A DNA stretch of 64,000 bases from Psammoneis japonica (taxonomy: Eukaryota), in assembly GCA_008632985.1 (NCBI GenBank), contig QPGO01000006.1:803138-867137 (forward strand), read 5' to 3'. Below, in pieces: positions 7,461 through 64,000 of the stretch (positions are counted from its first letter, which is position 1; each line of letters opens with the position of its first letter). The notes under the pieces were generated by a model. The model did no database searches and had not been told where the DNA came from. It saw only the letters and a list, made by a program, of their open reading frames with translations. Both the position numbers and the translations under genes were made by a program.

Positions 7461-7695
7461 GAAACCCCCCATCGAAATCTCGAACCCGGCGGCAGGCGGC
7501 GCGCGCAGGAATAAAACTGAACAATGTCATCGTTCAAAATCCTCAATCCGCGCGCAACGACAATGATGCGCATAGCCAACACCAAAAATTACCGCCAGCA
7601 ACGCAATCAACCACAACACCAGAAAGCAAATTACGACTCGATTCTATCCACCAAACAGTCACAAGAAACAACAACATGTCAAGACAATAAAAATT

Positions 7696-12640: not shown

Positions 12641-12713
12641 GACGGCCAGACCGCCGGAATTCGCTCGTTTATTTTCTTTTTTTGATTTTTGATTTTGATC
12701 GTTTCTATGCTTC

Positions 12714-22825: not shown

Positions 22826-23329
22826 TTTATCAGATCCAACTTTCGAAGTACTTGTTGCATCATTACTGTCCTTGACCTACATGCAGTCCCGTCATGGCAA
22901 TAAATTCACGAGACGCACAGTTAGTTCAACTAATACCATAGAAAAACCCGAGTCGTATCAGCGTAAGGAAACTTACATTACTGGCCTTGTCAACTTCTGA
23001 CTCCAAAGAGGGAGAGCCATTTTCAGTATCCATATTAGCGTTGTCCTTTGCTGCCTGACGCTTACGTTATTCGCCGCCGTTGCCTCTTCGTTTTTGTGCA
23101 TCGCATTGCGGCATCACGAACTATGACACTGTAAAGTGTTGGGTCTGCGGTCCGACAAAAATTTACAATCAAATTCTTAGGAGATGAATACTTTTGATTT
23201 GTGGCTGTTTTATTTCATGAACATTTATTTTGTGTATAAAAATATTATTATTTTTAATATGAATATATAAGGTACTGTCGGTTTTCGTTTCCTTCAACTT
23301 CAACGCCGCGTGAGCACAACGATGTTGTG

Positions 23330-32940: not shown

Positions 32941-34575
32941 CTGTTCGGATGTGTCACCTCTGGCGAAAATTGTGACGAAGCCCGGTCAGTGCTCCCCCGG
33001 CTGCGACTAAAGCGGAGTGTTTATGTCATGCTCGCTGAGCAGACGTCTATGCCTTTTCAGCACAGGGTCAATGCAACATATCGTGCAATGATGGAATCTG
33101 GCGTTCAAGACGGACTAACGGTCCGTTGAAATGATTATTTGTTAGCCACGATATCGAAGTGCAGTGAAGGAATTTGGTGAGCGTGTTAGAGCTATGCTGT
33201 CGCATCGATTCTCTAAAGCAAATTTCTATCTTTATCGGCTACTGTCATGTATAAATCTTCTCATGAAACCACCCTTGAACACCAAAACGCTCTCGATTGG
33301 TTTGTAGCACTTCATGTGGCAGCGACACGGAATCAAACAAAACGAGCGTTCCCGCTCGAGGTACAATGTCTCGGATTCGTTCTCCACCATCCTCACCCTG
33401 CGGACCAACACTCTTGTTGTTGTTGAAAGAGATTAGCGATTTGGGAGCATCAATCAAGTGGAAACGATCCCGGTCTCGTGGATCGTCCACCATGAGTTTA
33501 CGAGCCATGGCGTCACCACCGGCCAAGTAGAGTGCAATGTTGGCAAAGGGCTTTTGGGACAAGTCGCGCTTCTTGCCATTTCGATCCATGGTGTACAACA
33601 TGCAAGTTTCATTCTCGGGTCCTTCGCGGGAGGGATCCAAAAAGACGGGTTGTTCTCCTTGGTCGTTGGTGGTAGCTCGGAGCCAACCGACTTGAAGATC
33701 ATTGCGTCGAGCACCGACTCGAGATGACGCTGGAAAAGCACGTTCGTGAAGTCTCAATTGACCACCGTCTTGTTCGGACCAATCGTCATTGAGGTAAATG
33801 AGCCACGTAATGGATCGTCGAGAGGCATTTGGTTTGAGTGGGAGTTTGGATCCATTGGGTCGTTTCAGTTCCAAATGATGCTCATCCGTGTGTCTAGCCA
33901 ACAGAGCGCCCTCGCCGTACCGTAAATATTCCATTTCATGTGTTTGCGCCACATCGTTGGCAAGAGTCGGTCGATCGGTCAAGCCTTTGGCCAAGACAGC
34001 CTTGACCTGAGCCATTTTGAGTTTGAGAGTCTGACGCAGTTCGTAATTGCCGACTTGTGGGTCGACAAAGGGCCCGTCTCCACCGGCGGATGAAAAACTC
34101 GGCATGATCCAACGATCATTGGCAGCTTTATCCGCCTTGTTGGGGTTTCTCGATAGAATAAAATTGGTAAAACTACCCGATTCAAAGCAGTTCTTAACGT
34201 CGTCACACACGGCCCGAGTTTCATCCGGCGTCAGCCAGTTGGGTATAATCACGGCACGACCCTCCTCGATTTGTTCCAGAGTTCCGGGTGGAAGAATGTC
34301 ACCATTAACATTTGTTTCAACAGCGACTACTGCAGTTTCCACTGCTCGACGCCATGCGGCTTCGGCACCCAACCCGGCAAGCGAAGCAACCATGGCTTGA
34401 CGACGAGACAGAAAAGACGACAGTCCTTTTTTCTTTTCAACAAAAGTTTCCTCATCGCTGCACTCTTTTGCAAAGCATCTCGTGTTTAGCAGTCTGTCAC
34501 TAGTATAAGCATCAGTTGTTGTTGGTTGAAATCCATTCCAAGCATCGACAGTGCACAACAACACAACAAGACATA
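32570..34575 (-). repeat. Inverted segmental duplication, copy 1 (2OG oxygenase gene plus 3' flank)
   Basis: The reverse complement aligns by eye with 57040-59015 along its length, apart from small deletions. Confidence 0.95.
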
Positions 34576-34618
34576 TAAGCGCTGGAATCGTCACCATGGT
34601 TGGCATGCGGCGCCTCAT
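33245..34618 (-). CDS. 2OG-Fe(II) oxygenase (prolyl-hydroxylase-like), probably plastid/thylakoid-lumen targeted
   Basis: Intact 457-aa ORF with YLRY.EGALLARHTDE (HxD), RSITWLIYLNDDW..DGGQLR and PRAGTLVLFDS..LPHEV..T.RERF..GWF. Signal peptide ..TVDA-W and a twin-arginine-like SRRQAM. Confidence 0.85.
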   Translation of the reverse strand: MRRRMPTMVTIPALICLVVLLCTVDAWNGFQPTTTDAYTSDRLLNTRCFAKECSDEETFVEKKKGLSSFLSRRQAMVASLAGLGAEAAWRRAVETAVVAVETNVNGDILPPGTLEQIEEGRAVIIPNWLTPDETRAVCDDVKNCFESGSFTNFILSRNPNKADKAANDRWIMPSFSSAGGDGPFVDPQVGNYELRQTLKLKMAQVKAVLAKGLTDRPTLANDVAQTHEMEYLRYGEGALLARHTDEHHLELKRPNGSKLPLKPNASRRSITWLIYLNDDWSEQDGGQLRLHERAFPASSRVGARRNDLQVGWLRATTNDQGEQPVFLDPSREGPENETCMLYTMDRNGKKRDLSQKPFANIALYLAGGDAMARKLMVDDPRDRDRFHLIDAPKSLISFNNNKSVGPQGEDGGERIRDIVPRAGTLVLFDSVSLPHEVLQTNRERFGVQGWFHEKIYT

Positions 34619-34830
34619 TTTTGTGCGTTTGCTCGCGAACGTCGCATTGAAATCAGAAGTGGTCGCGTGTGCTGCGAGACGCGCGCTTTTCTCGCGCGCT
34701 CGCCTCGCGCTCGCTTATGGATCCGAAGATCGAAAGACCGACCATGCTAGAGCATGGGCGAAGACATTCTGGAATTCGCACATCGTTCGTCGCCTTCATG
34801 TTTTCACCACATTGTTCTGCAGCAACGGCA

Positions 34831-35754
34831 ATGAAGCTACCTTTTGGAATGACTGCAGCAGCGGCGATTGGAGTACAGGGAAGAAGCAGTGGTAGTTGTG
34901 CAAGCGCTTCCTATGAGGCACGAATCTACACACTCGCATCTAGCATTCAACCCAAAATCTTGCTACCGTTGCGTGGCTCAGGCAACTATGGAGAATCGGG
35001 AACTTCCGCCTTTTATACAATTGATCAATTGCCACCGGCTCTATCAAAAATGGCATCATCATCTATGTCAAAACTGGAACGACACGATATAGATTTAGGA
35101 CCGGATCGTTTGGCCTTTACCATTGACAATGTTCTTTCTCACGACGAAGCCGATGCGTTGGCTGCGTGTGCAGAAGCGGTTTTGAAAGAAAACGGCCACT
35201 CTCGACTTGCTCCAGGCATTCAGACACCACCTGGAATGAGAATCAACGAGGCTGCTCATTGGTATCCCTCTCATCGAATTGCTCCAATGTTTTTAGGACC
35301 ACTTTTAGAACGCTTTCAACACTTGGTCCCACCGACATTGGGAGGTCTGAAATTGTTTCCAAAATTGTCAGAAAAGGTGGCACAATTCAAGTACACAACG
35401 GGAGATCGATTCAATCGTCATGTCGATGGCTTGTTTCCCGGACAGGGAGCCAGTCCGGATGGAAATGGTATCGATGAATGGGAGGGGGTCGTCTCGGGCA
35501 TGTCTGTTTTATTCCATCTCAATGACGAACCAAACGATGGACTGCAAGGCGGTGAAACACGCCTTTGGTCGGCGGATGGCTCTCGTCATGTGGATATCAA
35601 GCCTCAAAAGGGACGAGCTCTCTTTTTTCGACGGGGTAGCCGGGATGCCGTGTTGCATGCCGGTCTACCCGTGACGGGAGAGATTCCAAAGTACATGGCA
35701 CTCATCAATTTGGCGTATGGAGAACAAACAGGTACATCGTCCATGAGGAGATGA
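34831..35754 (+). CDS. 2OG-Fe(II) oxygenase (P4H-like, 2OG-FeII_Oxy_3 type); start codon uncertain
   Basis: Motifs FTIDNVLSHDEA, FKYTTGDRFNRHVDG, SVLFHLND....GGETRL, PQKGRALFF and LHAGLPV..KY. Confidence 0.85.
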   Translation: MKLPFGMTAAAAIGVQGRSSGSCASASYEARIYTLASSIQPKILLPLRGSGNYGESGTSAFYTIDQLPPALSKMASSSMSKLERHDIDLGPDRLAFTIDNVLSHDEADALAACAEAVLKENGHSRLAPGIQTPPGMRINEAAHWYPSHRIAPMFLGPLLERFQHLVPPTLGGLKLFPKLSEKVAQFKYTTGDRFNRHVDGLFPGQGASPDGNGIDEWEGVVSGMSVLFHLNDEPNDGLQGGETRLWSADGSRHVDIKPQKGRALFFRRGSRDAVLHAGLPVTGEIPKYMALINLAYGEQTGTSSMRR

Positions 35755-44608: not shown

Positions 44609-45886
44609 CCGGCCCAACGGATGGATCGCTGGGGTATTCGAATATATTCAAACATTTTAAAATAATATCCTGATTCAATTCCATAAAACAGTCATTTTCA
44701 AACGACACTATGCGTCATGGATGAATGTGCTTCAAAAATTTGAAAAATCCGCGTCCTTCCCCCTCAACCTGCAAAAAGAAAAATGCAAAAGCAACCACCT
44801 GCCACCACCACATATAAAATGCAAGCAGATGGAAATGAGCAAGATCTCTTGCCAGCGGTGCAGTTTTTGGTTTTCTGGGCCAAAACAGAAAGAGCAACCT
44901 TTCAGAGGGCACATTGTGGTGGAAGAAGCGCAAGCAAAAGCAAGCTGCAAGAACAAAGCCCTGCTCAACAAGTCAAAAGAAAACAATGCAACAATGCTGC
45001 AGTCTGTGCTTTGAAAACTAAAAAAGAAACTTCAGGCACCAATGCTGCCAGAGACCAAAGAGAGCTGCAGTGGTGGAGAAGGCCAGAGCCGAGCAGAGAA
45101 AGAGGAGCAGTGTCACACAACAAGCAAAACAAAACAATGCTGTGGCCGCAAGCAGGAGGAGGTGTTCTTGGCCACCAACATGAAGCCTGGCTGCTGGCAG
45201 CAAGAAATCCAAAAGAACCAGCTTTGTTTCCATGGTCAACAAGTCCAACAACAAAAACAAAACAACAAAGGCGACAAATGTGAAAGCACGCACCATCTGC
45301 TGCTGCCTGCGCCAGCGATGCTGGCGGCAATGCGGCAAAGGAAAGAAGCTTGACAAAGTGAGACAGGGGGGTGCTGGGCACAATGTTGTTGTTGCTGGCA
45401 AGTTGCCCCAATGTTCAGCACAAAACCTGTGCCCTCTGGTGTGAGATGCTGCAAAGCCGGGGGCTCAGCTTGCTTTCTTGCCGAAAAGAAAAGCTCTTGC
45501 CCCTCACCACATGTCACCAAAGAAGGGCAAGAATCCCAAGACCCAAGATGTCCCCAGACAAAGATTCTTTGGAAATGCACTTGACTGCAAGTTTTGTGGC
45601 TTGGTGGGAGAGACAAGCAAATTTTCTGCAGCTGCGTGGGGCGCCAGCACTGAGCCAGATGTCAGGAGGCAACAGAGAGCAGAGACGAGAGACAACACTT
45701 CATGTGCACAGCAAGAGACAAGCTTGAGGTGCACCCCTCAAACCCAAGCTGGGACCACAGAATGCATGATGGGCTGCCTGTGGTTGATGTTGTTGCACAA
45801 TGACCTTGACCCCACCCAGCTGCAGGAGGATAGACAAGCAAGAATTCAGGACCCAAATCGAACTCCGGCCCAACGGATGGATCGCT
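44609..45886 (+). mobile_element. ~1.25-kb insertion-like island (domain D5, CpG/TpA-depleted) bounded by a perfect 22-bp direct repeat
   Basis: CCGGCCCAACGGATGGATCGCT occurs at 44609-44630 and 45865-45886. The interior 44720-45830 is TA/CG-depleted. Confidence 0.6.
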
Positions 45887-46028
45887 ACGAGCATTGAAAT
45901 ATGTACAAAATTGTAGATCCATAATTGTGACGAGTATTTGAAGAATCCGTGTCGTTTCTTGTTTCCCGCGCAAAGAAAAAAATGCAGAATAACAACAACC
46001 ACCATGTGAGCAAATAAGAGGGAACGAA

Positions 46029-46964: not shown

Positions 46965-49900
46965 GAGTGCGCCGGACATTTTGGAAAACGAGGACGCAAT
47001 TGGGTTTTCGTACTATAAAAGAGGGCTGTGGCCATGATGGTTTAATGTCAAATCGAAAAAAATTTTGATCTTGCTTCTTTTCGTCTCCACACACTGAATG
47101 TGGACAAACTCTGTTCTCGTTTGCCAGCAAAACATGCCATCATGTTGGAGCTCGTGCATCTCCTTGTGCACGTTATGGAAGTGATGTAATGTATAGCCCA
47201 GCTGTTTCTGTGAAGTTCCACTCTATCCCCTTTCAGAGAACTGCTCTTTTGACACGCAACATGATGTGATTCGCTTTGAACCACGCAGAAAATGCATTCA
47301 AACTGAGACTGATGAAAAGATATTTTGGTCAACCTGCTCATCTGCGATGTCCCTTGGCTCTTGCTCAGCTGTCCACAACAGCCTCAAGCCATCACAAGCA
47401 ACTGCCTCTCACAACAACCAACAGCATTGAACCACCAGCAAGATGCTGCTCACAACTGCAACAGCGCCCATCACTTTGGCACATGTGCACCGGAAAGAGC
47501 TTGGGAGCAGATCGATGCAAAAACAGCCCCTCTGCAACATGCTGCAGTGGCTTCCATCAAAACAAGAACAAAAAGGGTGACACACTTTTGCGCTTGGGTG
47601 CAGACCAAACAGCAGCTTGTGCTGCGAACATGTTGGTGCACAATGTCTCAGCTTTTTCTCTGTTCTGCACTTGTGTTTTGAAAAACCAGCACTTGCTTTG
47701 AACAAGAAGCTGAGACAATCTTGTGCTTTTCTCATTTTGAACAGTTTTCTTTTTGCCGCTCTTTTCACTTTTCTTTGTTCTGAGTCATGCACTCTCCAGT
47801 GCTTTCAACAAAGGTTGTCAATGCTTGCAGAGAATGTTTTTGCACATGAGGCTGTTTCATGCTGCACACTTGAATGTGGGATGTGTGCTCTCTTCTTGTT
47901 CTTTTGGTTTTCTCTTTCAACCCTGGCCACAACTTCTGTTTTCAATGGCAGAAAATGCTTTGGCTCCTGTTGTCAAGCTCACAGCCAGTCTTGTCCTTTT
48001 GGCACCAACAACTGCAACATGGTGCTGCTCTTTGCCTCCTCCAAAAGCTCTCTTTTGACATGAAATGGTGATGAGAGGCTCTTTTGTTGTTCTTCATGGC
48101 AGCAAAAACAGAGAAGCTTCTGTGTCTGAAGAGCTTTTGGGCAATTTCTCACCAAGCAATGGGTGAGAGTTCATCCTGGCACCTTGTGAGATTCAACAAG
48201 CTTGCCACAACACCAGCAAAGTTGCAGAGAGATCACAGCATCATTGTTCAGGGCATGTCACCCTCCTTCAGCTCTGAGGTTGTGTGCAGCACATCACATC
48301 TCTGGGTGCACCAACCCAGGTGATGCAAGTGCCCACAACAATCATGCAGCAGTTTTCTGATGGTGGTTCAAAATGGCCAGGGCAAAAGACTTGCTATTTC
48401 CTGTGCCAGAAGCTGCCTCCAAGATGCAGTGACAAAACATGGCAGATGGTCTGACAACTGGAATTTGTTTGCTCAGGTGTGCACAGTGCACCACCACCAA
48501 AGCAAAAGAGGTGCAGCAAAGTTGAAAATGACAAGTGCAGCAGCAACCATCACTGGCAACAAAACAAGCTGTGGGAAGACGAGCATGGGAGCAGCTGGAG
48601 GTCAAATCAGTGCCTTTGCAAGATGCTGCAGTGGCTCAAATTAAGAGGAAAATGAAGTGACATGGATCATGGTTTGTTTGTGCCCTGTTTGTCAAAACAG
48701 TTCACACTGGGAAAACATGGCAGCACAGAAAACTTTCAACTCTTCCAAGCACTTGTTTTGAAGCCAGACATTTGAAGCCAGTCTTGTTTTAAGAAAATGC
48801 TTTTGAATTTTCAAACATTTGTTTGTTTGCCTCCACTCTTCTCACTCACTGTTTTCCTTGTTCTGGGCCCTGTGCTCTGGTGCACTGAACAAGTCATTTC
48901 AACTTGCAGCAAAGTTGCAGGCATGGTCACTTTGCTGGGGGGGGGGGGGAGAGAGAGCCTCCCCTCTTTACTTTTAGACTTCTCATTCACTCACCATTCT
49001 ATCTCCTTTCTTCCAAATGCAGCAATGGGTGCTGCTTGGGCCATTGCTGAGCTCACACTTTGTCCCACACCCTTGATGCTGACAACAACAACAATGTCAC
49101 ACTCCACTTTTTCTCCCAAATTTTTTTGACGTGTGGCAGCAGCATGTTTTTGTTGTTTTGGGCTCATGAGACAGCATCAAATGGAGGGGCTGCATCCAAA
49201 GAGCTTGGGTGATTTCCCATTGAACAAAGGGAGAAATTGACCAAAGCACTTGTTGGCAAGAAGGTTGCTGGGTTCATTGGTGCCAGTGAAACCATGGAGA
49301 TGGCCACATGAAATGTGCACCATCCCTCAGCTCTGCACTCATGGACAGCAAATCTGGGGAACATTGCCCAGATGGCACAAGTGCCACAAAGATGGCACAG
49401 TCTCAAAGTCTCAAAAAGATTGGGGTGCAAGACTTGCCATTTCCAGCAGAGACAACCACGGCAGCATTGAGGCTGCAACTCTCTATGCCCCATGCATGGC
49501 AGACCTTCCTTCAGATTCAAATGGGGACAGCAGCACTGTGTCTGCATCCAACCAAGTGCCCAGGTGCATCACTCAAGAGAGAAGAAGCTGGCTTCAACTG
49601 TCAAGGAAATCTGCAGAGAGCTGTTTGAAAAAAAAAAACAGGGGGGAAGCATTTGTTTCAACTGAGTTTTCTCTTTTGTGCAAAATGCAAAATGACTGAT
49701 GTCTTGGAAATCACAAACAACATGGTGTGGCACATTGCTAAAAATGCAGGAAGCTTTCTTTCAGGAGAGGGTTTCTCTTGCACACAACAAAGTCAATCAA
49801 ATTGCTGCACTGTGGAGCAGGATTGTGGTTTGTTGTGTTTGCAACCAACACATTGCACCAAAGCTCCCAGCTGCACAGAAAAAAAAAGCTGCACAGAATG

Positions 49901-50499
49901 GTCAAACAACCATTTGGCTGTTGCATTGGTGGTGGTGGTGGTGGGGGGGCATCCTGCATTGAGAACAGAAGATTCAGATGAAGAAGGGGGGTCAAAATTG
50001 CCATGTGATCTCAATGCAGCAAACATTGGTCCAGCAAAGATGACTCTGTTCCCCCCAGAAAAAGTCTTGCTGGGCATGAAGCAGGGCTGCAAAGAGGAGT
50101 GCCAGCAAGAAAGAGGAACACTCCTTCACTCAATCTTTTCATGGGTGTGTTTTGGCAGCTCCCTGCTTTTAGCTGCATTTTTCTTCCACTCCATCTTGCT
50201 CAGCTCTTTGTGCCATGGCAACAAACATTTGTTGTTTGTCTCTCACCTTGCCAAGCAGCTCATTAACCAAGCAAGATGATCTTTCCTTTGCAAGTTTGAA
50301 TGAAGCCATCAACAAAAGTTGCTGTGCATGGCTGACCCCCACTCCCAGCACACTGGGTGCGGCAGGAGCATGCAACAACCAGCCTGAATTTGCATCACCC
50401 TGAGGTGATGCTGCGCCAAAGTAACTTGCAATGGTGCGAGTGCCCCTCACTTCCAGATGCCGGGCTTCGTGGATGCTGGACTTGAACATTGGCCCAACC

Positions 50500-53400
50500 A
50501 CAGCCAACCAATTGTGCAATCCATGGGTCAAATGGGTGAGATGCTCCTCCACTGAATCAAGCAACTCAGATCAATTGCAAGCCAAACAGTTGTCTGCCTT
50601 GGAACAGACAGCTTGCACTTCTGCCTCAGTGTCTTGGCACTGTGAGGATTTTCTTTTCTCTGAATCGTGCCCATGCACGGTGTCATTGTGACTGTCCCAA
50701 AGTTCCCAACATTGAGACCACACAAAACTGCCAATCGTGGTGGCCCAATCTAAGTGCCTTTCCTCATCCAACAAGGAGTGACAAAAACCAGTGGACAACA
50801 AGCACAATGTTTGAGCTTCATTCCACCATGTCACAACGTGGAGAAATGCCCATTGAAAATCTGTCTCCAACCAATTTTGTCTTGAGATTGAAACACCGCC
50901 ACAGCACTCTGATGGACGTTTGCAGAACAAAGCAACTTGTCATGAAACCATCTTTCAAGAGCATGCAGCAACAGATCCCGGAGTGACAGAGATGTGTGCA
51001 TGTAATCACACTTCTTCCGCAAGCCCCATAGAAAGGTGCACCGCCAAGACTCATTGTGTTTGCACCACAAAACATGGTCTCTGTCTTCAAGCCAATGTTG
51101 GCAGTGTGTGCAGCAGTTGGGACACATTGGGTTGCAGTGGTGGACAATCTTGTTGATTGGCAACAGATCTTGTGCAAGTTTCACTTTGCTCATCTTACGC
51201 TGGATGTTTCTGGACATCAGTTTGGAAATGAACTTGCCAGTTGATTGAAGAGCACACCACGTCAGTCCATCTGCACTTTTCCTTGACATGTTCCATCAAG
51301 GACAAACTGGATGCTTCACAGCAAAGTGCTGATTTGAATTTAGAAGTCACAGATGCATCTTGTGCAATCATCATTGCAGAACAGTGGGGCATGCAAGGCA
51401 CAAGCAGAGTCTCACCATTGTGTTGGCCTTGAAACGCGCTCGCCAGCCGGTCAGCACTGACGTTCAATTGTGCAGGGAGAGGCAAGGACTCGTGTGGGCT
51501 GTTGCTGTCCACCTTCAACCCACTGCATGTTCACAAAGATGTCGGCTTGTTCCACATCAGAAGGACCTGGAAAAGTTTGCAGCATCAAAAAGATTTTGTG
51601 CACCACGTCCCAGTCAGGAGCCAATGTGTTGGCAATGTGATGCCGACAATGACAGTTGTTGAGCCAATCAAATTCTTCCGGATCCATGGGAGGTGGTGGC
51701 AGGGAATGAAATTCTTCACATTTTGGACCAAGGATGAGTTGTTGCAGCAGGCATCCACTCCATGGGTCAAACTGCCCCTGCAGAATTCCATCACTCAAAC
51801 AAGGAAGCGCAAAATGGACAAAAAGCCATGTGCCTCAGTGCAGCAGGATGATGGTTGAAAACCAAAAACTGGTCTGGCACAATCAACTGAGGCAATGCCA
51901 TGAACCACTGATGTCCAACCAAAGGTGCCTTCAAAGTGCAACACCAAACCATTGCTGCCCACAGCTGCACAAAATTGCACCAAGGAACTTGCGATTTCAA
52001 AGACAGAAGCGCAGAGAGTGAGATTGTAAAACAATGTAGATTCCCATTTGGGCAAAGACTGCAGCCAAGCTTTGAAATCACTGCAGACAGGGTTGTTTGG
52101 AGGGACAGACACCTGTGACATTGATGAGCGGATGCTGCATTGTCCATCCGGAGTTGTGTCAACCAAAATGGGGGATGCCAAAGGAGAGAGATCAGGGACC
52201 ATCTCCAATTGTTGCAACGACTCAGCGCATCCATTTGTGATGAGAAAATCTTCAAACTCAGCAGCGGATTGGATGTGCAAGTGTTCTTCCAAGGGTTCAT
52301 GATGCGCCAAATGTGGCACTCTCATTTCAGGCTCAGGGGCTGCCCACTGACCAGAAGGATGTCGCAACTCAGTGGTGAAGTCGTTGCACAATGGGGAGCA
52401 CGCCCTCCGCCACTGTTTCCAAGCTCTTGGAGATGGTCCAGCCTGCTTGATGGGATTCAAGGAGGAAGTGCCACTCAACAGGGATTGTTGACCTTGAAGC
52501 ATGAAGTGATCCAACTTTTTGCCATCAGGGAGAGCAACATCAGAAATGGCAAGCACACAGAGGTGCAAACGGCAACAATTCACCCACCACATTCTTTGTC
52601 AGAGAAAATCCCCGAATCTGGCACAACGTCCACAACACACTGATCATTGTCTTGTTGAGTTGGAAGAACACTGGTGCAGTCAAGCTTGAAGGATGAATTG
52701 GCCCTCGCAAGAAAGGATCACATTGACATGAACCACTTTGACTTGCAGTGAGGGAGTTTGGAATGTACACACAACAGGAAACTGATGCCCGTGCCTGTCT
52801 GAAATTGCATCCATGCAACTGCAACCCTGGACAAATCATGAGGTTGTCTGGTGCTGCACCAGTGGCAAAGAAACTGCAAACACTGAGCAATCCCTTGTTC
52901 AATGTCAAGCAACTGGAAGCCACCACCACCAAGGGTGCACGGTCTACACAGTGCATCTTGTTTGGCATTGCAGTTGTGTCCACACTTGGCAAATGTTGCA
53001 CACATTGCCTTTCGTTGAATCTCCAACAACTCTTTTGGTGAAAAGCATGTGTTCAGAAGCATGTGTGTCATCAAAGATGGGCAGCATGCAAAGTGATGGG
53101 TCTACGCTTTGTGTCCACCTGAGGGGCATGACCGCAGGAAGACAGACACATCATCACTCTTCTTTTTGAGGGCCTTGCATTGAGTCTTCTGAGTTCCAGC
53201 AGGCAACTTGCAATGGCTCAGTGTCTTGTGAGACAAGCATGCGGAGAGCTGAGTGCTAGAGTGCTTGGTGGATCAATCTGTGGAGTGTGTTTCAATGTCA
53301 ATTTTGTCATTGTACACTCGTAAATGTGGTTCACCATCGGCCGTGAAAAGCCACTTGACAGCATGGAAGGAGCACTTGGGAAGTTCCAATTCATGTCCAG

Positions 53401-56200
53401 CTGCATCAAGGAGGTCACACCACAGCTGATTATCTTCTTGCATTCAAAGGACCAGTTCAAGTGCTTCAGGTTGAGGGTCTACACAGAAGTTGTTTACTTG
53501 GTTGGACGTGTCATTGATGTGCCCTCTGGTGAACACATGCAAGGAAATGGAGTGGTCAGGAGATTCAAAGCATGCACCATGAGCCTCACTGTCAAATGAC
53601 CAAAACAAGCTGTTGCAAATCTGACTCCAACAAAAGGGCAAATTCCCACTGCCTTGTCCTGTGCCGTAGATGGGATGCACATCAGAGTGAGAATGTAAAG
53701 AGACATTGAGCACCATGCAGTGCAGCATCCGCCATCTGAGTAACGACCTTGGGCATTCCGTCACTGCAACTCTCTGTTGTTGTCAAGGCCGGGATGCTCC
53801 TGTTGCAACATGAGGCACAATCGCCATCACTGTGAATGGCGGTCATCTGAGACACTCTGCTGATCTCCAACATCAGCTCTTTGAGATAAACTGGAGCACA
53901 GGCATTCAAAAAGGGGCGTGTGCCATAAATCCAAGGATTGTGCAAGTGGCAATGCTCTGTGTTCTGTGCCAGGGCTCTCCATTTCACACTTGAAATAAGT
54001 TGAAAGTCTGCTTTGTAAACATGAATGACTCAAAGACAATGAATCTTGTTGTTGCCTGGCTCCTTGAAGATCACAACATTGACAATGTCTTTCCACCTGT
54101 CATGAGAGCATCCCCACTTTAGGGCACAATTGAGCAAGTTCAATCAAGTGCGGATCAAGGTTTGTTGCACTTTGTTCAGATGCAAGCACTCAGGAGTCAG
54201 GTTGCCTTCTGGTGCTTTGGAGTCAGAATGTGAGTGAGTTGCATGTGATGCCTTCCAGTGACCCAAGTCAAGGCCCAAGCAAATGGAAGTTGTCATTGTT
54301 TCTTTCCACAACTTGAGTTTGCCTTCAAGATCAAATTCAGTCAACAGTTTGGACACTGAGACTGGAGATTGCCTTTGCAGGCATTGGACAAAAAGAGAGG
54401 TGGCTTTGTCAAGAGATGTCATGTCACACTTGCCATCTAGAATGATGTCAGCCATCACGGTGTCACCTTCACATCCCAAGTCCACGGACAGTGGAGGGAC
54501 TGTGGGGTGTGTGCCATGAGCTTGTCCAAAATGCTTCTGATTGTAAGAGCAAAGAGCTGTGGCTGCATCTTCTGGAGCATCAATTGTCATCCAGTCCTTG
54601 CATTCTTTTGGGTTTGTCACTGGGTTGCATGGTGCTTGGACACTGCCAATGCCTGTGTCTTGTTGTGCTTTGCATGCATTGACCTTCTGGAACAGTTTGG
54701 CAGTTTCCTCCGCCTTTCAAACATTCCTGACAATGGTGGCTGCTTTGCGTGTGGCTGCCATTCCTTCAAGGTCCAATTTGGTGATCTTCTTGGACAATTT
54801 GCATTTGCAATGTTCCACACATCATTCCTTTGCTGCTTTCTTGCACTTGGCCTGTGCCTGTTGTAAAGCTGCCTGACATTCTTCAAAGGTTTCAATGGAG
54901 TGGAAAAGGATCCAGTGAGCTTCAAGTGAATCTGTTGCATCTGGGCCACACAGTCAAGACGGGTCCACATCATGGACAAAATGCAAGCAAAGACATTATG
55001 AACACAGTGGCAAAGGTCCACCAACTCTGCCAACCAATCCAGTTCACGATGAGAGCGGCACTTTTTTTCAGCAGCCAAGGAAAACTGCAAGAGATCCCCA
55101 TCCAACCATTTGGCCAATTTGTGATCACTGGACTCCATGAGTTGGTTGGACCATGCCAAAAGGAGCGGCTGTCAAGCATCGGACCAACAGCAGTTGGGTG
55201 TGAGGTGACCTGAGGTTTGGACAAAGCTTGAATGTCTTGGAAGGCGGCTTTAGGGAGGTCAACTGTTGGGTTTCCAAATGAGGCCATTGTGTCAAAATTG
55301 ACAAAATGTGCTCAATGATCTGATGCAACTCTGCAGCCAAACACTTTGTAACCACCAAACCAAGCCACCAACAAGGCCCCAGGAGAGGCAAGGACACAAT
55401 CCAACCATTTAGATCCTTGGGCACATGTGGTGAAATGGGATTTGCCCACAATGTCAAAGAGCACATCAGACAAGTTAAACCATTGAGCCAAGGTGGACAA
55501 GGAATCCGTGCCCACTGAGAAATCCATGTTAAAGTCTCCAAATGACACCACCTCATGATGTGGCTCTGCCAAGAAATCTTGAAGAACACACAACAGGTTG
55601 GTGCAAAATGCTTTGCATGGGTCCAACACTTTGCATCCCTGTTGTTGCAAGAGATGAAGTTGTTGCATGCAGGCCGTGGTTTTTCCCGGTTGGCATTGGT
55701 TTTTGGCACAAACTCCATGGCTGGAAATGAACATCACCTGCCATCCATTGCGTCCATCAAACAATTGCATGGACCATTGCCCCAAAGGATCAGATTCCTG
55801 AGATTGATGCCACACCAAAATCGAGTTACATGAAAAAATGGCAGCACCACCTGGTTTGCATTGAGTTGAAAAAGGGGCAGAGTTGCTGGAAAACGTTCCT
55901 CTGCCATGCAAGAGAGACCCAGATGCAGCAGAATGGCACACAGATAAAATGCTGATCTGAGTGGCATCCAACCACACTTCAGAAATGCCAACAACATCTG
56001 CTTGGATTTTGGTGGCGATCTTACATGCTGCCTTGACATCTCCACCCCACTTGTTGAACTTACACCCATTGGCATTGAAGGCGTAGAGGCAAGTGTGTGG
56101 CTGCCTGCCTCCAGACCAGTGCTGCCATTTGTGAGTTGAGAAGCTGTTGCTCTGAGTTTTTCGTCCCATTCCATTCTGCTTGTGAGCCACTTGAGCAGTG
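50500..56200 (-). mobile_element. Degenerate non-LTR retrotransposon (LINE, Ambal-like architecture: APE endonuclease - RT - RNase H - Zn finger)
   Basis: APE (55312-56190): FNANG, DVVGISE, DPLGQW, GDFN, GSKWLDCV, SDH. RT: PIYGTGQGSG and HINDT (degenerate YIDD), ~53480-53700. RNase H: VGSNGLV..GTFGW..SSCCTEAHGFLSILRFL and AQLNVSADRLA. C-terminal C..C....EDRDHVLWC. Many stops and frameshifts. Confidence 0.85.
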
Positions 56201-57039
56201 CAACCACCTTTCCACTTTTGTTTTCAACCAACATTTTGGAGCAGCTTGCCTTGTGTTGGGACATCTTGTGCTCAAGCTGTGCATCACTGCACTGTGATCA
56301 CATTGTGCTTTTGAAGAAGCACAACTTAGAAATGTCTGCAATGTGCAGGTGCAAGAAGCAACTCTGCCAACACAGTCTGGAAACAAGCTGTTGTTGCTTT
56401 CCTTTGACTCACTGACTCAAACAGCTCCATGGGAAAAGTTTTGTGAATGGTCTGTGAGCCAGGCACAGCTGTCACCTCCAGCACTTTTCCAGTGGTGGAA
56501 ATGAACAAACAGCTGTCATCTGTGGCCTGTCTTTTGCAACCCAGTGGGTTTGTAGAGTCTAAGCTGGGCCTGGTTGCCATGTTTGCTGCTGGCAGCTCTG
56601 ATGCCATTGTTGCATTTCAAGCTGATGGCCCTTTGGTTGTGGTCAGTGAGCCAGGCCCTGCGAGCATCATTCCAATGAACGCCAAGTCCACCATGTCTTT
56701 CATGGCACATGCAGATGAGCCTTTCACAGCCACCAGTGCTGGTTCTCTTGCAATGCCCACCAACTTGGCAGCACTTGATGACCTCACATCTTGCATGCTC
56801 CAGATCCCAAAGATTTAAGTCCTTGGCCACTCCACTGCTCCATGCAACAGTGGCATCATTCGCAAGATGGAGGGTTGCACCTCTGCTGGCTGCAGCCCCC
56901 ACAACATTGTCATCTGATGTGCTGATGAATGCCACCATTGCTTTGTTGGTGGTCAAGTCTCCTCATCTTTGGATTTTTGACTTGGTCACTGCCAGATTTG
57001 GATCTGTGTGATGCTGCCCTTTGATGATTTGAGCGGTTG

Positions 57040-58345
57040 TTTGTCTTGTTGTGTTGTTGTCCACTGTCAATGCTTGGAATGGATTTCAACCAACAACTGC
57101 TGCTTGTGCCAGTGACAAAGTGTTAAAAATGGGATGATGTGCAAAGGATTGCAGTGATGAGGAAACTGCTGTTCAAACAAACAAAGGACTGATGCCTTTT
57201 CTGTCTCATTGTCAGGCCATGGCAGCTTCACTTGCCGGGTTGAGTGCCAAAGCAGCTTGGTGTTGAGCAGTGGAAACCACAGCAATGGCTGTTGAACAAA
57301 ATGCAAATGATGGCATTCTTCCACCCGGAACTCTGGGACAAATGGAAGAGGGCTGTGCCATGATTGTGCCCAAGACTGTGTGCATCAACATTGAGAACTG
57401 CTTTGAATTGGGAAGTTTTGCCAACTTCATTCTGTCAAGAAATCCCAACAACAAGGTGGACAAAGCTGCAAAAATGATTGTTGGATCATGCCAAGTTTTC
57501 CATCCACCGGTGGAGACGGGCCTTCAATCAACCCACAAGTTGGCAATTGTGAATTGCGTCAAACTCTCAAACTCAAAATGGCTCAGGCCAAGGCTGTTTT
57601 GGCCAAGGGCTTGACCGATTGACCAACTCTTGCCAACGATGTGGCTCAAACACACAAAATGGAGCATTTGCGGTGTGGAGAGGGCACTCTGTTGGCAAGA
57701 CACATGGATGAGCATCATTTGGAACTGAAATGACCCAATGGATCCAAACTCCTGCTCAAACCCAGTGCCTCTCAACAATCCATTGTGTGGCTCATTTGCC
57801 TTGACAATGACTGGTCCACACAAGACAGTCAATTGAGACTTCATGAACATGCTTTTCCAACATCATCTTGAGTCAGTGCCCAACGCAATGATCTTCAAGT
57901 CGGTTGGCTCCAAGCTGCCCCCAATGACCAAGGAGAACAACCCCTCTTTTTGGATCCTTCTTGCAAGGGACCCAAGAATGAAACTTGCATGTTGCACATC
58001 ATGGACTGAGATGGCAAGAAGCGTGACTTGTCCCAAAAGCCCTTTGCCAACATTGCACTCTCCTTGGCCGGTGGTGATGCCATGGCTTGCAAACTCATGG
58101 TGGACCATCCATGAGACCGGGATTGTTTCCACTTGATTGATGCTCCCAAATTGCCAATCTCTTTCAACAACAAGAGCATTGGTCTGCAGGGTGAGCATGG
58201 TGGAGAACAAATCCAAGATGTTGTGCCATGAGTGGAAATGCTCATTTTGTTTGATTCTGTGTCACTGCCACATGAAGTGCTGCAAACCAATCAAGAGCGT
58301 TTTGATGTTCAAGGGTGGTTTCATGAGAAGATTTGTGCATTGCAG
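57040..58345 (+). pseudogene. Hypermutated pseudogene copy of the 2OG oxygenase at 33245-34618 (duplicated flank continues to ~59015)
   Basis: Fragments GILPPGTLGQMEEGCAMI, FANFILSRNPN and LFDSVSLPHEVLQTNQERFDVQGWFHEKI match the intact gene, with TGA stops and deletions. Confidence 0.95.
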
Positions 58346-59949
58346 CAGTCAATGAAGGCAGAAATTTGCTCTAGAGAATCAATGCAGCAGCACAGCTCTA
58401 GCATGCTCACCAAAGTCCTTGACTGCACTCCAACATCCTGGCTGACAAACGATCATTTCAAGAGACCATTGGTCTGTCCAGAATGCCAGATCCCATCATT
58501 GCATGACATGTGTTGCAACAACCCTGTGCTGAAAAGGCACAGACGTCTTCCCAGCAAGCATGACACAAACACTCCGCTCATGTTGCAGCCAGGGGGGGGG
58601 GCACCAACTGGGCCTCATCACATTTTTTGCCTGCAGCAACACATCCAACCAGTGGAGAGTTGATGTCAGCCTCATCTCCCAGTTTTTTTTTTAATGGAAA
58701 TGAAGTTCCTCTCTCATTCCACAAACTGGCACACATTTTGCTCACTTTTGCCATGCCCATCATTTCATTTTTGCCCTTTCACCTTGGACTGAAAAGCTGG
58801 GTGTGCTTGCCTGATGTGTGGTCCCAATGCGCATCAAAAAGGTGGGGCATTTCACAACCACCATTGGCCATGTTGCAGGTGCCAATCACTGAACACTTCC
58901 AAGACATGCAGGCCAAGATCACATCCAAAAGTTCTGTTGGAGTGAGCAAGTGAATCATGAGGCTCTTCTTTTTCCTCCTCAACCATGAAATGTGATGAAT
59001 CCCACAAGTCATCTTGGCCATGTTGTGTTCTGCCATGAAATGGCAAGGCCAGGAAAATGCAACTTGCCAGGCACAGAACAGGGAAATGGTGGCAAGAAAG
59101 GAGAGAGAGTGCATCCAAACCAACTCATCGACAAAAGCAAATGTCCAAATAGATCAAGGTTGCACCTCATCTTTACGACATCGAAACTGGGGATGCAATC
59201 GCCAATCAATGCACCGCTTCTTGCATGGTCCAAGCCAACAGATTTGCAGGACTCTGGCAGTGAGTTGCAAATGGACCAGAACTTGTCCACACAGGGAGAG
59301 TGAATGCTTTTAGATGCCACCTGTCAATTGTGTTCACTGTGCATGCATCCTGTCTTGGCTGTTCATTGCGGCTCTTGGGCATCATCACTGATGGTTCCTC
59401 TGGAAAGAGATGCAAAGGGTGCTTTGGTCATCTGGAGACTGTTGTGACTGTTGAAGTGGCAATCCAAAAGCAGCCCAAGTGTGCTGTTGGCCAAGTGCAG
59501 GGAAGGAACACAAAAATTCTCAGTTGTTTCATTGCCTTTCTTTGTGTTGATGTTGGATGTCTGACAGGTCATTGTGGTCTGGAGCAAACCAAGGGACATC
59601 ACAAACTTGCTTGATGCATTGTTTGGAAATGGCAACAAACACAGAAATTACAACAGGGTCATCCACAGGGCAGACATGGTTGATCAGCGCACCATTGTGG
59701 GAATTCTTTTTTGTCATGCATTGACTGGAAGTGCAGCCACAGCCTGTGCACATGCCAAGTGACTGTCGAGCTGTGCCAGAGGAGGAAGAACCAGTGGCAG
59801 GACTTTCACCAGCTTTCTTGGACAGGGCCTTGAAATGCATTAGATCAAGGATGGGGTGGGTGGCACGTCACCAATGTGTTCTTTGAGGAGCACATGCATC
59901 TTTTTTCAGTTGGAAATGACAGATGTAAAAAAAACACATTGCTTTTGAG

Positions 59950-60430
59950 GGTGATGTGGCACAACCATTGCATGTTGCCCCGGAAGCAACTTTGATTCCA
60001 ACAGGCCCACTTGCCACCAGAACTGCTCCTTGCATTTGGAGATTGCCAAACAACAACGTTGCAGCAGGTGGCTTCTGCAGGAATCACTTTGCCATCATTG
60101 ACACATGTTCTGGTCATGAGTTTTGCAGGTTCAATGCTGGAGGGCAGCAGAGAGCACTGGACTGCTTTCTTTCTGCTGACAGAAACACAACGTTGAATGG
60201 TGTTGCGGTTTGCACCCCCTTGAAGGATGGCACAAATGAAGTCCTCCTTCTAAATCACTCTTCCCCAAAAGATCTTCTTGATCAACCATTGTCACCGAAC
60301 TGTGACTTTGGAGTTGGTTTGCATGGTGAAACCATTTGTGAAGTGTTGTGGTTCTTCTTGTCAAACAATGCATTTTTCATCTTGTCTGGAAGTGAAGATT
60401 GCTCTGCAAGGCTGTCTTTGTGTCAATCAA
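59950..60430 (+). pseudogene. Relic of a WD40 gene resembling WDR6/Trm734
   Basis: GGF..NHFAIIDT..GHEF.RFNAGGQQR...GLHGETICEV......ILSGSEDCSARL resembles the WDR6 GG..R, LHG.EI and GSED motifs once Cys/His are read back as Tyr. Confidence 0.45.
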
Positions 60431-60949
60431 GTGGTGCAAGACCCATCGTTGTGCGTCAGACATTGAAAACAAGTTTGTTTGATGCCTTGCAACTGCCGAT
60501 GAGTGAATTTTTGAAAGTGTGCAGCCGTCAAAATGAAGCCAAGCTATTTTTATCATGGGAAGAATGGAGCTCTGCTGGAGGCAGTTCAACACCAGATCAC
60601 GTGGAACCCCACTTGCTTCAGTGTCAGCATTCACCCAGTCATGCACAAGAGCAGGACATGCAGTGTTGCGCACCCTGTTTTTCTGACAACATGTGGCATC
60701 AATGATTGTGTCAGACATTAAAGGGAGCTGTTGCAATGGGCTTTGCCAATTTTCTTTGCTGATTGCAACCTCTTGTTCCCTTGGCCTTCTCTCACAGCTT
60801 TGTTGTCACTGACATCTTTGTCTTGTTTGACCTTGCAGGGCATGAGCAAAATGTCCGAGAGACATTGTTTGGACATTGCATGTCTGTGCAGTGATCTTAA
60901 ACAACCAGGCACAACTGGCTGGGCATGAACAACTGAAATGACCAAACTC

Positions 60950-63460
60950 AGTCATTTTTGGGACTGCATCACTTGGAGTCAAAGGCAGAGTCCTCGGAGA
61001 GGATGGCAGCGCAATTGCATTTCACTCTTTGTGATGAGTGAACCGTTGAAGGAACCGTGCATTGACCATGAGGCAAAGTTTGAGCATTCTGATTTGGAAA
61101 GTGCAAAATTGACTCAATTGCATGATGATGGCAGCACTCACATTAAAAAGTGTCCACATTTTGATGGAACTCATGGCATTGAAGCATTGTCATTTGTTGA
61201 ACATCGTTTTTGTAAAATTGCTGCTAAATTGGAGCATGCTGCTGGAGAGGAGTTGTTTGACAATTTTGAAGAAGCATTGGCTGACACAGTGGAAGACAAA
61301 TGGCGATTTTGACTGACAGCATTGTTGATGCTGACAAAATTGTTGCACGATTTGATTGAGAGATGAGCCATTTTCACTTGTCTCATTGTGACAATGAAGC
61401 ACGTGATGCAATGATTGAACCCTTTCCAACCTTGAAAAAAACATTTAAATCTGAAGTGCAGGCACATGCGGATTGCATGGAGACCTTGATTCAACATGCT
61501 GACAAGCCACCTGGAAACAATCCTCAAGTCAATGATGCCCAGAAGAAGAACATGATTTTTGACAGCTTCCCTTGTCTGTGGCACAAGATGTGTGCTCGAG
61601 TGTGATGTGCAACAGCCACTGACAGTCTTGCCAAGATCATCAGCTGCATGAACGATGAACAATCTTTTGCAGACAAAAGTGGCAACAAGAAACAAGAGAA
61701 GAAATGCAAAATAATTCCACCTTGTCTCAAGCTTCAAGGTGCAGCCGTGGCAACAGCACTTGAGTGGAACCCAAGGCCAAGTGTCCGGCACACCCCAGCC
61801 ATGATCACAAGTGGAAAGATTGCATTTTGAATCCAGAGAGCCAAAGCTGTCAACCAAGGACGGACCATGGAGGTTGTGGCAGAGGTCAAGGTGGAGGCCG
61901 TGGGAACTGTCAAGGATGAGGATCACAAGGCAGAGGAGGTCAAGGTGACTTCCAATGTCAGGGACATGGCAACTGCAGCAAATGCAGCAACCATGGAGAT
62001 TGTGGTTGTGGAAATTGTGGTGGTTCCCAGAATTCTCATGGAGGTGCATCCCGCCATTGTTTGAATCAAAATGGCACCCAAGCCAACAATGATGCGCAAG
62101 GCCATGGAAATCTGGCTGGATCAGCTCCTCCTGGTGGCTGGCAAATGGAGTTGCACCATTTTGATCAAGGAGGGCCTCATGAGATGCAAGGTGGAAATGG
62201 GTGCAATCAAGGCAGTCGTTTTCCACAAAGCCAACAAAGTTGGTGCAACTGATGTGGGACGGAAGTGCCCAAGTCAGAGTGTGTCACTCAATCTTTTCAT
62301 GTTTTGTGTGATTGTGAAAATTGTTTGTGTTTTAATGTGGATGAAAGTGTTGGAAACCTGATGGAGTCCTGTGCTGTGAATGACAAGAATTGGGCGGCAC
62401 TTTGGAGTGTGCCATGCCAACCCCAAAAACTGCAACTCCCAAACCAATGAATGTGGTGCCTGCAACGTTGATGGCTTTGCGCACAATTCAGAATCAAGAG
62501 AGTGAGCAACAAGTGTTGTGAGCACTTTTAGATTCTGGAGGCACTGCTGACACCCTTGTGCATTCTCAAGTTTCACCCAAGGGAGCCAATCCAATGGCAA
62601 ATGACAAGGGATGAATGAGTTTCGAGACTGCAGCTGGATGGCATGAATCATCCCGGCATGTTGTCATGAAGGATCTGGTGCTTCCTGATTTTGATAAATC
62701 CAAACAAGTGGATGGTGTTGTTGCGCAAGTTTTGATTCTTCCTGCAAGTGCAACATGACATTGGGTCAAGATTTTCTTGCCAAAGCTGGGACAGTGCTTG
62801 ATTTCTGATTTGACATTACAAAGTGGTCAGATGCATCAATCCCAATGAAGCAGTCTAATCATTGGAACAAGGTGCAGAGCTGGTTGGAGACACTTGATGA
62901 CCACGAGGAAAGTGATGAGTCTGAAGGAGATTTGCAGGTTGAAAGTTGCATGTTGGATGCCAAGCATGAAAAGGTTTCAACAGGAAAAGCAGCTCAAGCT
63001 CAAACGCATTTGACCATGGAACAATGTAGCCAATTGCAGGCCGTGCTTGAAAAGCATGAAACTCTTTTTGATGGCACACTCGGCAAGTGTCCGCATGAGA
63101 CAGTCCATTTGGAAGTTGATCCCAATGCTGTTCCCTTTCATTCTAAAGCCCGTGAAGTGTCAAAGAATGATGAGGAAGTTTTTAAAAGGGAGTTGAAGCC
63201 TCTCTGAGACATTGGAGTTTAAGAACAAGTGGATCCAATGGAGTGGGCAGCTGGAACGTTTGTCACTCCCAAGAAGGATGGACGAGTGCAACGGGTGTCC
63301 AATTTTTGAGGACTTAACAAGGTCCTTCGACACAAGGTCTGCCCCTTGCCTGTTGTTCAAGATGTGATTCATTGATGCTCAGGGTGCAAATTTCTAACCA
63401 AGCTGGACCCCACAATGTTTCACTGCCATGTTGAACTTGACGAGGAATCCAAGGACCAAG
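60950..63460 (+). mobile_element. Degenerate Ty3/Gypsy LTR retrotransposon (gag - protease - truncated RT)
   Basis: Gag-like CPHFDGTHGIEAL..EELFDNFEEAL. Protease ALLDSGG (62522-62542) and NMTLGQDFL..G.VLDF. RT N-terminus LEKHETLFDGTLGK, WAAGTFVTPKKDGRV..VSNF*GLNK..CPLP..QD, KFLTKLD...ELDEESKD. It breaks off before YxDD. Confidence 0.85.
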
Positions 63461-64000
63461 GAAGAAATGAGAGCCACCCAGCAGCAAGAGAGCTGCTTCC
63501 AGCTCAGTTTGGTTTTCCCCATTTGGGGATTCCCCAAAATGGCCAGGGCAAGAGGGGGGTTACATTCCCCTTCTGGGGAATTCCCGGGAAATGAGGGCAA
63601 TTTTGAGGGAAAGAATGTCTGAAAGAGGTCAGGGGAGGGGAACAAAAAACGAGTGGAATCCGGCAATTCTGAATTGATTTGGCTCAGGCGCAAGTGCTTT
63701 TTTTATCTTCTGCGGTCGATCGAACTTACACAGCAGCTCTAGAGTGGCGGAGCAGAGAACTTCATTCACACGGCACTCCAGGCTGTTGCCATTGCACTGT
63801 AGATTAATCTACTTCGCTGCTGCCACTGCTGTTGATGCCACTGCTGTTTTCCATCTCCTCCACATTGACAGAGGCTGGCTTCAAGGTTCTTTGTTGGATC
63901 ATCTCAACCAAGCATTCATTGATCATCCATGGCTCCAAGGCTGCATCATCAATGCCATCATAATTCGGAGGCATTCCAAGGACACACCACCCACCACTTC

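Follow-up and report, generated by a model that had tools for sequence, protein, structure and literature searches.

Strand-symmetric loss of CpG and TpA follows position rather than repeat homology in a stretch of a diatom genome

We analyzed a stretch of 64,000 nucleotides from the diatom Psammoneis japonica (GenBank assembly GCA_008632985.1, contig QPGO01000006.1, positions 803,138 to 867,137 of the forward strand), which as a whole is termed the window. It carries an intact oxygenase gene and an inverted, mutated duplicate of this gene, which sits in a block of DNA depleted of both CG and TA dinucleotides. The repeat unit with the intact gene is termed copy A, and the dead duplicate inside the block copy B. 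At most CG and TA sites of copy A, copy B has TG or CA instead. The polarity of these changes, their sequence context, strand symmetry and confinement to blocks, and the independent mutation of both copies can be read directly from the alignments. We think it likely that they reflect a strand-symmetric loss of CpG and TpA that is targeted by position to silent blocks. The CpG part of this loss would be ordinary, and the TpA part would be the second-lineage instance of a process described in Bigelowiella natans (Mettrop et al., bioRxiv 10.64898/2026.01.13.699255).

An oxygenase gene and its mutated duplicate

Copy A (32571-34593, minus strand) comprises the gene from codon 9 onwards and 674 bp of 3' flank, and copy B extends over 57022-59010 on the plus strand. 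The two regions, at 32.6-34.6 kb and 57.0-59.0 kb, are linked by nine collinear inverted segments of 81-90% identity in a repeat search. When the reverse complement of 32400-34800 was aligned with 56850-59200 by MAFFT, copy A (34593-32571) and copy B proved to be 83.9% identical (1658 matches, 319 mismatches), with 58 gap columns; BLAST gives 82.2% identity across 2021 columns. The original prediction, made from the sequence alone, had described 57040-59015 as an inverted copy of 32570-34575. By repeat search, MAFFT and BLAST these coordinates are correct within about 20 bases, and all eight intact-to-copy changes quoted in it are found again in the MAFFT alignment.

The intact open reading frame (ORF) of copy A (33245-34618, minus strand) encodes a predicted 457-amino acid 2-oxoglutarate-Fe(II) (2OG-Fe(II)) oxygenase of the prolyl-4-hydroxylase (P4H) type, as judged from the ORF list, Pfam and its homologues. 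The protein matches PF13640 (E = 1.3e-17, 65 bits as against a curated cut-off of 27) and PF13661 (43.9 bits), and in a 20-sequence alignment its His-x-Asp stretch and distal His fall in invariant columns. It has 144 homologues, of which those named are mostly from diatoms (Odontella, Pseudo-nitzschia, Thalassiosira, Chaetoceros), with a best identity of 69-76%. Other ORFs of the window are also eukaryotic by Pfam (EMP70, ankyrin repeats, sulfotransferase), which together with these homologues identifies the window as nuclear DNA of a diatom. Read in the frame of copy A, copy B has nine in-frame stop codons, every one of them TGA and seven derived from CGA. Its codons show 115 non-synonymous and 51 synonymous differences from those of copy A, and 20 codons are gapped. 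Copy B is thus a pseudogene, a dead duplicate of the host gene. A second PF13640 oxygenase gene (34669-35754, plus strand) stands head to head with the intact one, with a gap of only about 50 bp.

The mismatches between the copies comprise 241 transitions and 78 transversions. Read from copy A to copy B, the transitions are balanced between the strands (C>T 68, G>A 68, A>G 53, T>C 52), and the two strands were collapsed for the counts by context. A>G is found at 38 of 94 A in TpA as compared to 67 of 906 other A (odds ratio 8.5, Fisher p = 3e-16), the latter being made up of 24/310 after A, 22/314 after C and 21/282 after G. Likewise, C>T is found at 82 of 215 C in CpG as compared to 50 of 732 other C (odds ratio 8.4, Fisher p = 1.6e-26), for which the fraction is 6-7% before each base other than G. 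Per base, transitions at TpA and CpG are thus about 5-6 times commoner than the same transitions in other contexts (7%), and TA sites change far more often than A elsewhere, in line with the original prediction. Its statement that most differences are of the CG or TA type holds only in part. Both classes are enriched, but CG- and TA-type transitions make up only 120 of the 319 mismatches (38%). If the 21 double sites at which TG and CA are exchanged are added, the figure rises to 162 of 319 (51%), or 162 of the 241 transitions.

When whole sites are followed with their flanks, copy B is changed at 44 of the 47 TA and 90 of the 107 CG of copy A, and keeps 3 TA and 17 CG. CG sites became TG in 45 cases and CA in 36, with 17 unchanged; TA sites became TG in 22 cases, CA in 14 and CG in one, with three unchanged. 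The opposite case, CG or TA in copy B and TG or CA in copy A, occurs once. All three surviving TA lie in CTAA/TTAG, and CCGG survives at five of six sites. From copy A to copy B the ratio of observed to expected occurrences (O/E) falls from 0.36 to 0.03 for TA (47 to 4 TA) and from 0.93 to 0.17 for CG. The background between the copies amounts to 0.071 transitions and 0.035 transversions per site. The survival of 17/98 CG and 3/40 TA corresponds, as an arithmetic estimate, to about 0.9 and 1.3 substitutions per base, which is roughly 12 and 17 times the background.

The products show no strand bias, neither for CG (45:36, p = 0.37) nor for TA (22:14, p = 0.24), and a runs test gives no sign of strand-coordinated tracts (63 runs, 58.2 +/- 5.3 expected). 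The pattern is in keeping with independent hits on individual palindromic sites of duplex DNA, and it does not fit processive deamination of single strands or RNA editing of a retrocopy. The latter was rejected, since besides the missing strand bias there is no poly-A tail and the mutations arose in situ. GC-biased gene conversion and selection against TA were also rejected: both are too unspecific for context, given that other A/T positions changed at 7% and that 44 of 47 TA were lost in non-functional DNA.

To determine the direction of change, the copy A protein was aligned with its 60 best homologues and each codon with a non-synonymous difference was scored. Among these orthologues the copy A state is the commoner one at 49 of 52 CG-type codons and at 16 of 18 TA-type codons; of the other two TA-type codons, one is a tie and one, V97, an exception. 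If the count is limited to codons at which one of the two states occurs in 30 or more of the 60 orthologues, copy A is favoured at 9 of 10 TA-type and 35 of 35 CG-type codons. For example, Tyr231, Tyr234, Tyr275 and Tyr342 are Tyr in 51-60 of the 60 orthologues and His or Cys in copy B. The assumption of the original prediction that the intact gene marks the ancestral state is thus borne out. Composition agrees with this polarity: the intact gene (TA O/E 0.37, CG O/E 1.08) is at the level found in the six further long ORFs (TA 0.42-0.58, CG 0.90-1.13), and copy B is at the level of the block around it.

The same block contains, at 55315-56223 on the minus strand, the relic of an apurinic-like endonuclease domain of the long interspersed nuclear element (LINE) type (PF03372, E = 1.8e-9). 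An exhaustive search found 557 relatives of it at E <= 1e-3, some of them 1900-2100 amino acids long; a word-based search found none. At six conserved Tyr columns the relic has two Tyr, three Cys and one His, and at eight conserved Arg columns it has one Arg, two Cys, two Trp, two Gln and one Ser. The reverse, a conserved Cys, His, Gln or Trp column turned into Tyr or Arg, was not seen in the relic. A Tyr/Arg-poor and Cys/Trp-rich composition occurs in none of the 150 LINE-relic matches listed, which thus give no hint of the signature in other predicted proteins. The TA loss is therefore mutational, as had been proposed, and not a native trait of transposon sequence, because the orthologues polarize it and because the duplicate of a host gene and a transposon relic carry the same derived changes.

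Depleted blocks and their edges

In a 1-kb profile of the window, genic DNA has TA O/E values of 0.4-0.8 and CG O/E values of 0.8-1.3, and the blocks have values of 0.03-0.1 for TA, 0.02-0.28 for CG and 1.8-2.0 for TG/CA. Segmentation defines six blocks that total 33.7 kb or 53% of the window. The one that holds copy B (47101-64000) reaches the end of the window and contains 98 TA and 187 CG as well as 1877 TG and 1870 CA. Another adjoins copy A (23301-33001; 29 TA, 68 CG, 1134 TG, 1110 CA). The remaining four are islands: two at 1201-3901 and 6251-7501, found by segmentation; a small one at 10801-12701 that covers the end of a second duplicated unit (segmentation, BLAST); and one at 44651-45901 between the EMP70 gene and the sulfotransferase gene (segmentation, Pfam, edge mapping).

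Relative to genic DNA, dinucleotide frequencies in the blocks are 0.13 for TA, 0.20 for CG and 1.52 for TG and CA, and 0.83-1.23 for all others. The GC content is nevertheless the same, 0.475 in blocks as compared to 0.466 in genic DNA, because the losses of CG and of TA cancel each other. The two losses go together: out of 128 windows of 500 bp, both TA and CG are low in 61, neither in 63 and only one in four (r = 0.88). At the block edges, which are found 100-350 bp from the ends of ORFs, the composition changes stepwise within about 100 bp; there are, for instance, 13 TA in 23200-23299 and none in the following 500 bp. Survival inside the blocks depends on the flanking bases. For TA it is lowest between a purine and a pyrimidine (R-TA-Y; ATAC/GTAT 0.01, ATAT 0.03, GTAC 0.04) and highest in TTAA (0.48), and for CG it is lowest in TCGA (0.10) and highest in CCGG (0.42) and GCGC (0.38).

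Stop codons in the blocks comprise 854 TGA, 80 TAA and 42 TAG. Because TAA and TAG are almost gone and TGA remains, the blocks hold many long frames, namely 125 stop-to-stop ORFs of at least 100 amino acids, whose translations contain much Cys, His, Gln and Trp. Among the 57 of these 125 that were scanned with Pfam there was a single match above the curated cut-off, the endonuclease relic; three weak ones were disregarded. The ORF at 61174-62283 (minus strand) appears to be such a spurious reading frame. The blocks contain a LINE relic as well as a host-gene copy. The large block also contains a pair of 56-nt direct repeats (47497-47552 and 48581-48636) with 80% identity, 1084 bp apart.

The neighbouring block reaches into copy A itself. 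Its edge, at 32900-33000, lies about 290 bp beyond the stop codon and thus within the duplicated unit, so that the distal part of copy A (32571-32950, minus strand) is inside the block and has 0 TA and 3 CG. The remaining 1640 bp or so of copy A are untouched, including synonymous sites and the proximal 3' flank. In the distal 380 bp, copies A and B are discordant, TG in one and CA in the other, at 10 of 66 pyrimidine-purine sites as compared to 8 of about 350 such sites in the remainder of the repeat. In the unmutated part, CG or TA had made up about 38% of these sites; by simple arithmetic, about 13 discordances are then expected from independent resolution and about 1-2 from shared inheritance. 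The number found indicates that both copies were mutated independently after the duplication. The original prediction had stated that only the copy within the block was hit, which is true for about 1640 bp of copy A and false for its distal 380 bp. An edge inside the copy A unit together with an independently mutated distal part means that targeting follows position and not repeat homology.

A second, younger direct duplication pairs 9698-11071 with 15171-16531. It spans the 3' part of the ORF at 7696-10521 with its flank, and the ORF at 15185-15988 with its flank. The two copies are 95-100% identical in their genic part and about 70% identical from 10870 onwards, where the first copy enters the island at 10.8-12.7 kb; in this part the island copy has 0 TA and its partner 6. 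The support from this pair is noisy, as 27 of the 62 mismatches in the island part are transversions and the alignment is gappy. Elsewhere in the window, the ORF at 21108-22415, which has no Pfam match, holds tandem-like internal repeats (21994-22461) of 66-70% identity.

Comparison with a sequencing run and with known systems

One of three runs from one sample contains the stretch, and 97% of the sampled words of copy B are present in it. Contigs built from exact 31-mers at a word depth of about 62-69x reproduce 58032-59245 completely and 54050-58054 apart from three differences. Between the window and the contigs of the run, 14 differences at full depth are listed, nine of which exchange CG or TA for TG or CA or vice versa. 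Bases within CG or TA, which make up 3.5% of the block bases, account for five of the 14 (p = 8e-5). At position 57672, the window has CG like copy A and the run has CA; this difference is a derived change, which is either segregating or present in one of the two sequences only. Taken together, the 14 differences suggest that the mutation process in the blocks is still active or was so recently. None of them is a switch between TG and CA, which excludes strand-dependent misreading of a base. Contigs of paralogous repeats do carry such switches (50529/30, 50630/31, 51627/28), as expected from repeat copies that were mutated independently. High-copy repeats are indicated by word depths of 110-1536x at 50000-51300, 53300-54700 and 60700-64000, with the 1536x peak at 60.7-64 kb, as compared to about 62x elsewhere. 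At 60814, 62179 and 62286 most of the depth reads CG where the copy in the window reads CA.

The closest parallel comes from mutation-accumulation lines of the chlorarachniophyte B. natans, in which 231 of 302 new nuclear mutations are reported to fall in two silent integrated viral regions (bioRxiv 10.64898/2026.01.13.699255). All but one of these regional mutations (230/231) were A>G or T>C transitions, and these all lay at TpA. The TpA rate was about 6e-7, roughly 1000 times the background, and was seen in only 11 of 15 lines. The same genome has 124 TpA-poor and CpA+TpG-rich clusters enriched for reverse-transcriptase and endonuclease domains, and the authors propose an ADAT2-like adenine deaminase (bioRxiv 10.64898/2026.01.13.699255). 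The window likewise shows A:T>G:C at TpA that gives TpG or CpA depending on the strand, here at 38/94 sites as against 67/906 elsewhere, and discrete TpA-poor, CpA+TpG-rich regions with transposon-type domains. There are also differences. The process in B. natans is almost exclusively AT>GC, whereas in the window C>T at CpG is equally frequent (82/215), possibly as a separate, superimposed process. TpA loss is here spatially coupled with CpG loss, affects a host-derived gene copy as well, and is near saturation (O/E 0.03 as compared to 0.45). Moreover, the rate was measured directly in B. natans, whereas ours, about 12-17-fold over background transitions, is estimated from divergence, and a diatom is a stramenopile whereas B. 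natans is a rhizarian. A term search of the preprint returned no mention of diatoms and 0 occurrences of CpG. In the literature searched, which left subscription journals outside its coverage, we found no description of joint blocks of CG and TA turned into TG/CA in diatoms, nor any report of TpA>TpG/CpA hypermutation in diatoms.

The CpG changes resemble the decay of methylated transposons in vertebrates, with C>T at CpG on both strands, an excess of TG/CA and confinement to silenced repeats, if the blocks are indeed silent. However, such decay accounts for the CG half only; alone it would lower the GC content and leave TA intact. The transitions with their neighbour-base preference also recall hypermutation by the editing enzymes APOBEC (C>U) and ADAR (A>I), which act on retroelements and viruses, ADAR favouring a 5' U. 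The substrates of these enzymes are single strands or RNA, and the tracts that they produce are clustered and biased to one strand; the changes in the window, in contrast, show neither strand bias nor tracts and arose in situ in chromosomal DNA.

Possible explanations and their meaning

In the reading that we favour, copy B is a dead duplicate of a host gene, and the block of the diatom nuclear genome in which it lies, rich in transposon relics, would be silent. In such blocks, both self-complementary dinucleotides would be converted singly, and on either strand, to TG or CA. CpG would be lost through C>T, the simplest cause of which would be deamination of 5-methylcytosine (5mC), since diatom DNA methylation is reported to be mainly at CpG (PMC5124317) and loss of DNMT5a in Phaeodactylum to cause over-expression of young transposons (PMC9998398). 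TpA would be lost through A:T>G:C, with a signature like that in the silent viral inserts of B. natans, for which adenine deamination has been proposed. What is aimed at would be a chromatin block that ends 100-350 bp from ORFs, irrespective of repeat homology or foreign origin.

Several points weigh against this reading. The methylation, the silent state and the chemistry of the blocks are what we infer, and an excess of about 12-17-fold over background needs no dedicated enzyme. As the process in B. natans lacks a C>T component, the losses of CpG and TpA may have unrelated causes that share a target. Polarity was scored only at non-synonymous codons, where selection on copy A biases the result towards copy A. 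At codon 97 the state of copy B, Ala (GCA), is found in 38 of the 60 orthologues and that of the gene, Val (GTA), in 4, so that this difference may be a change in the lineage of the gene. The single matching run is possibly derived from the source sample and hence not an independent confirmation. Finally, a metagenome scan with an oxygenase alignment recovered no depleted block in the loci of relatives (0 of 5 loci of at least 3 kb); its 25 loci, of which a single one was long (20 kb), stem from short gene-rich contigs and are uninformative on generality.

The contrast with repeat-induced point mutation (RIP) that the original prediction had drawn stands. RIP in ascomycete fungi also inactivates repeats and transposons by irreversible, dinucleotide-specific transitions, but it is described as limited to C:G>T:A, for the most part at CpA, and as acting on both copies; TpA thereby increases and the DNA becomes AT-rich (PMC2621366). 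A RIP-like, homology-triggered premeiotic mutagenesis by an enzyme of the RID/DNMT4 type that recognizes duplicated DNA could still be invoked: more than 2 kb of DNA is duplicated in the repeat pair, the mutated DNA is rich in repeats with word depths up to 1536x at 60.7-64 kb, and DNMT4, which is related to fungal RID, is reported from 31 of 60 diatom species surveyed (PMC9998398). However, A:T>G:C accounts for about half of the signature here (A>G and T>C together make up 105 of the 241 transitions), TA does not rise but drops from 47 to 4, and GC remains constant. Moreover, strand-coordinated tracts are absent and stretches at single-copy depth are depleted as well. Copy A is untouched over 1640 bp, including synonymous and 3' untranslated region (3'UTR) sites, and mutated in its last 380 bp, with an edge that disregards the limits of the duplicated unit. 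We therefore regard a RIP-like process as very unlikely. Several observations oppose the view that a genome-wide neutral bias strips TA and CG everywhere and that selection alone retains both in genes. Although the TA O/E of genic DNA is already low (0.37-0.58), synonymous sites, 3'UTRs and spacers within gene clusters retain a CG O/E of about 1 and a TA O/E of 0.4-0.8, the edges are step-like within 100 bp, and the genic part of the second duplication shows 95-100% identity, which makes this view hardly credible. A sequencing or assembly artefact, in which modified bases of the blocks are misread, would explain why the differences between the window and the run cluster at CG/TA and TG/CA sites. 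Yet contigs at about 62x reproduce copy B with the few differences given above, strand-dependent misreading would yield disagreements between TG and CA (0 among 14), and copy B carries 78 transversions, indels and nine stop codons besides. An artefact is thus extremely improbable.

Two other explanations concern the mechanism. There may be no dedicated mutator, the blocks being excluded from mismatch, base-excision or transcription-coupled repair so that intrinsic hot spots accumulate, which would be deamination of methylated CpG and mispairs at flexible R-TA-Y steps. The excess of about 12-17-fold over background is of the order of magnitude of CpG decay in vertebrates. Independent and strand-symmetric events, block edges that track transcription units, and a graded context (survival of TA from 0.01 in ATAC/GTAT to 0.48 in TTAA, and of CG from 0.10 in TCGA to 0.42 in CCGG) would also be expected. 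On the other hand, A/T elsewhere shows no comparable excess (7% transitions) and transversions are low; in addition, the TpA process of B. natans, 1000-fold above background and on in 11 of 15 lines, is read by its authors as regulated. On balance we consider exclusion from repair rather unlikely. The TpA step might also proceed not by deamination of adenine but by modification of thymine to 5-hydroxymethyluracil (5hmU) or 5-formyluracil by a dioxygenase of the TET/JBP type, with mispairing to G, 5-formyluracil being known as mutagenic; strand symmetry cannot separate T>C from A>G. In dinoflagellates, members of a related lineage of the SAR group (stramenopiles, alveolates and Rhizaria), 5hmU is reported as a second DNA mark that prefers TA and TC, coincides with 5mC on transposons and aids their silencing (PMC11572971). 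That mark is, however, a modification and not a mutation, it occurs also at TpC, and no depletion of TpA is reported for it. TC is not lost in the window (ratio of blocks to genic DNA 0.86), and a base-resolution map of 5hmU in Breviolum is reported to show no sequence motif (PMC11071213). No report of 5hmU in diatoms was found in the literature searched. A thymine-based route likewise seems rather unlikely to us.

The favoured reading, position-targeted loss in silent blocks, can be extended. Diatoms, and perhaps the whole SAR group, might possess a chromatin-guided DNA-editing defence that reads two palindromic dinucleotides and irreversibly erases them in any DNA that comes to lie in silent chromatin. 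Its agent would be either one deaminase that acts on both A and C, or an unseen TpA-directed DNA mark beside CpG methylation. We put this forward tentatively, as a possibility on which we would not rely. If it is true, the outcome would be DNA without TAA or TAG stops, TATA-like motifs or TA insertion sites, at a constant GC content, and a natural adenine-directed DNA mutator that works on duplex chromatin would be of interest for base editing.

For genome annotation, the blocks are an obstacle. They thwart the annotation of transposons, as a credible Pfam match was obtained for only 1 of the 57 block ORFs scanned, and their near-exclusive use of TGA stops yields long spurious ORFs, which gene callers likely report as proteins. 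The pair of gene and pseudogene amounts to a natural experiment, in which one starting sequence with a known ancestral state has been exposed to what are probably two chromatin settings. Judged from this pair, the loss of TpA in the presumably silent DNA of a diatom is mutational and set by position. A process that was measured for the first time in 2026, in a single chlorarachniophyte, would thereby be found in the diatoms as well, a group of dominant ecological importance, and would be tied there in space to the loss of CpG. This points to an old, shared targeting mechanism.

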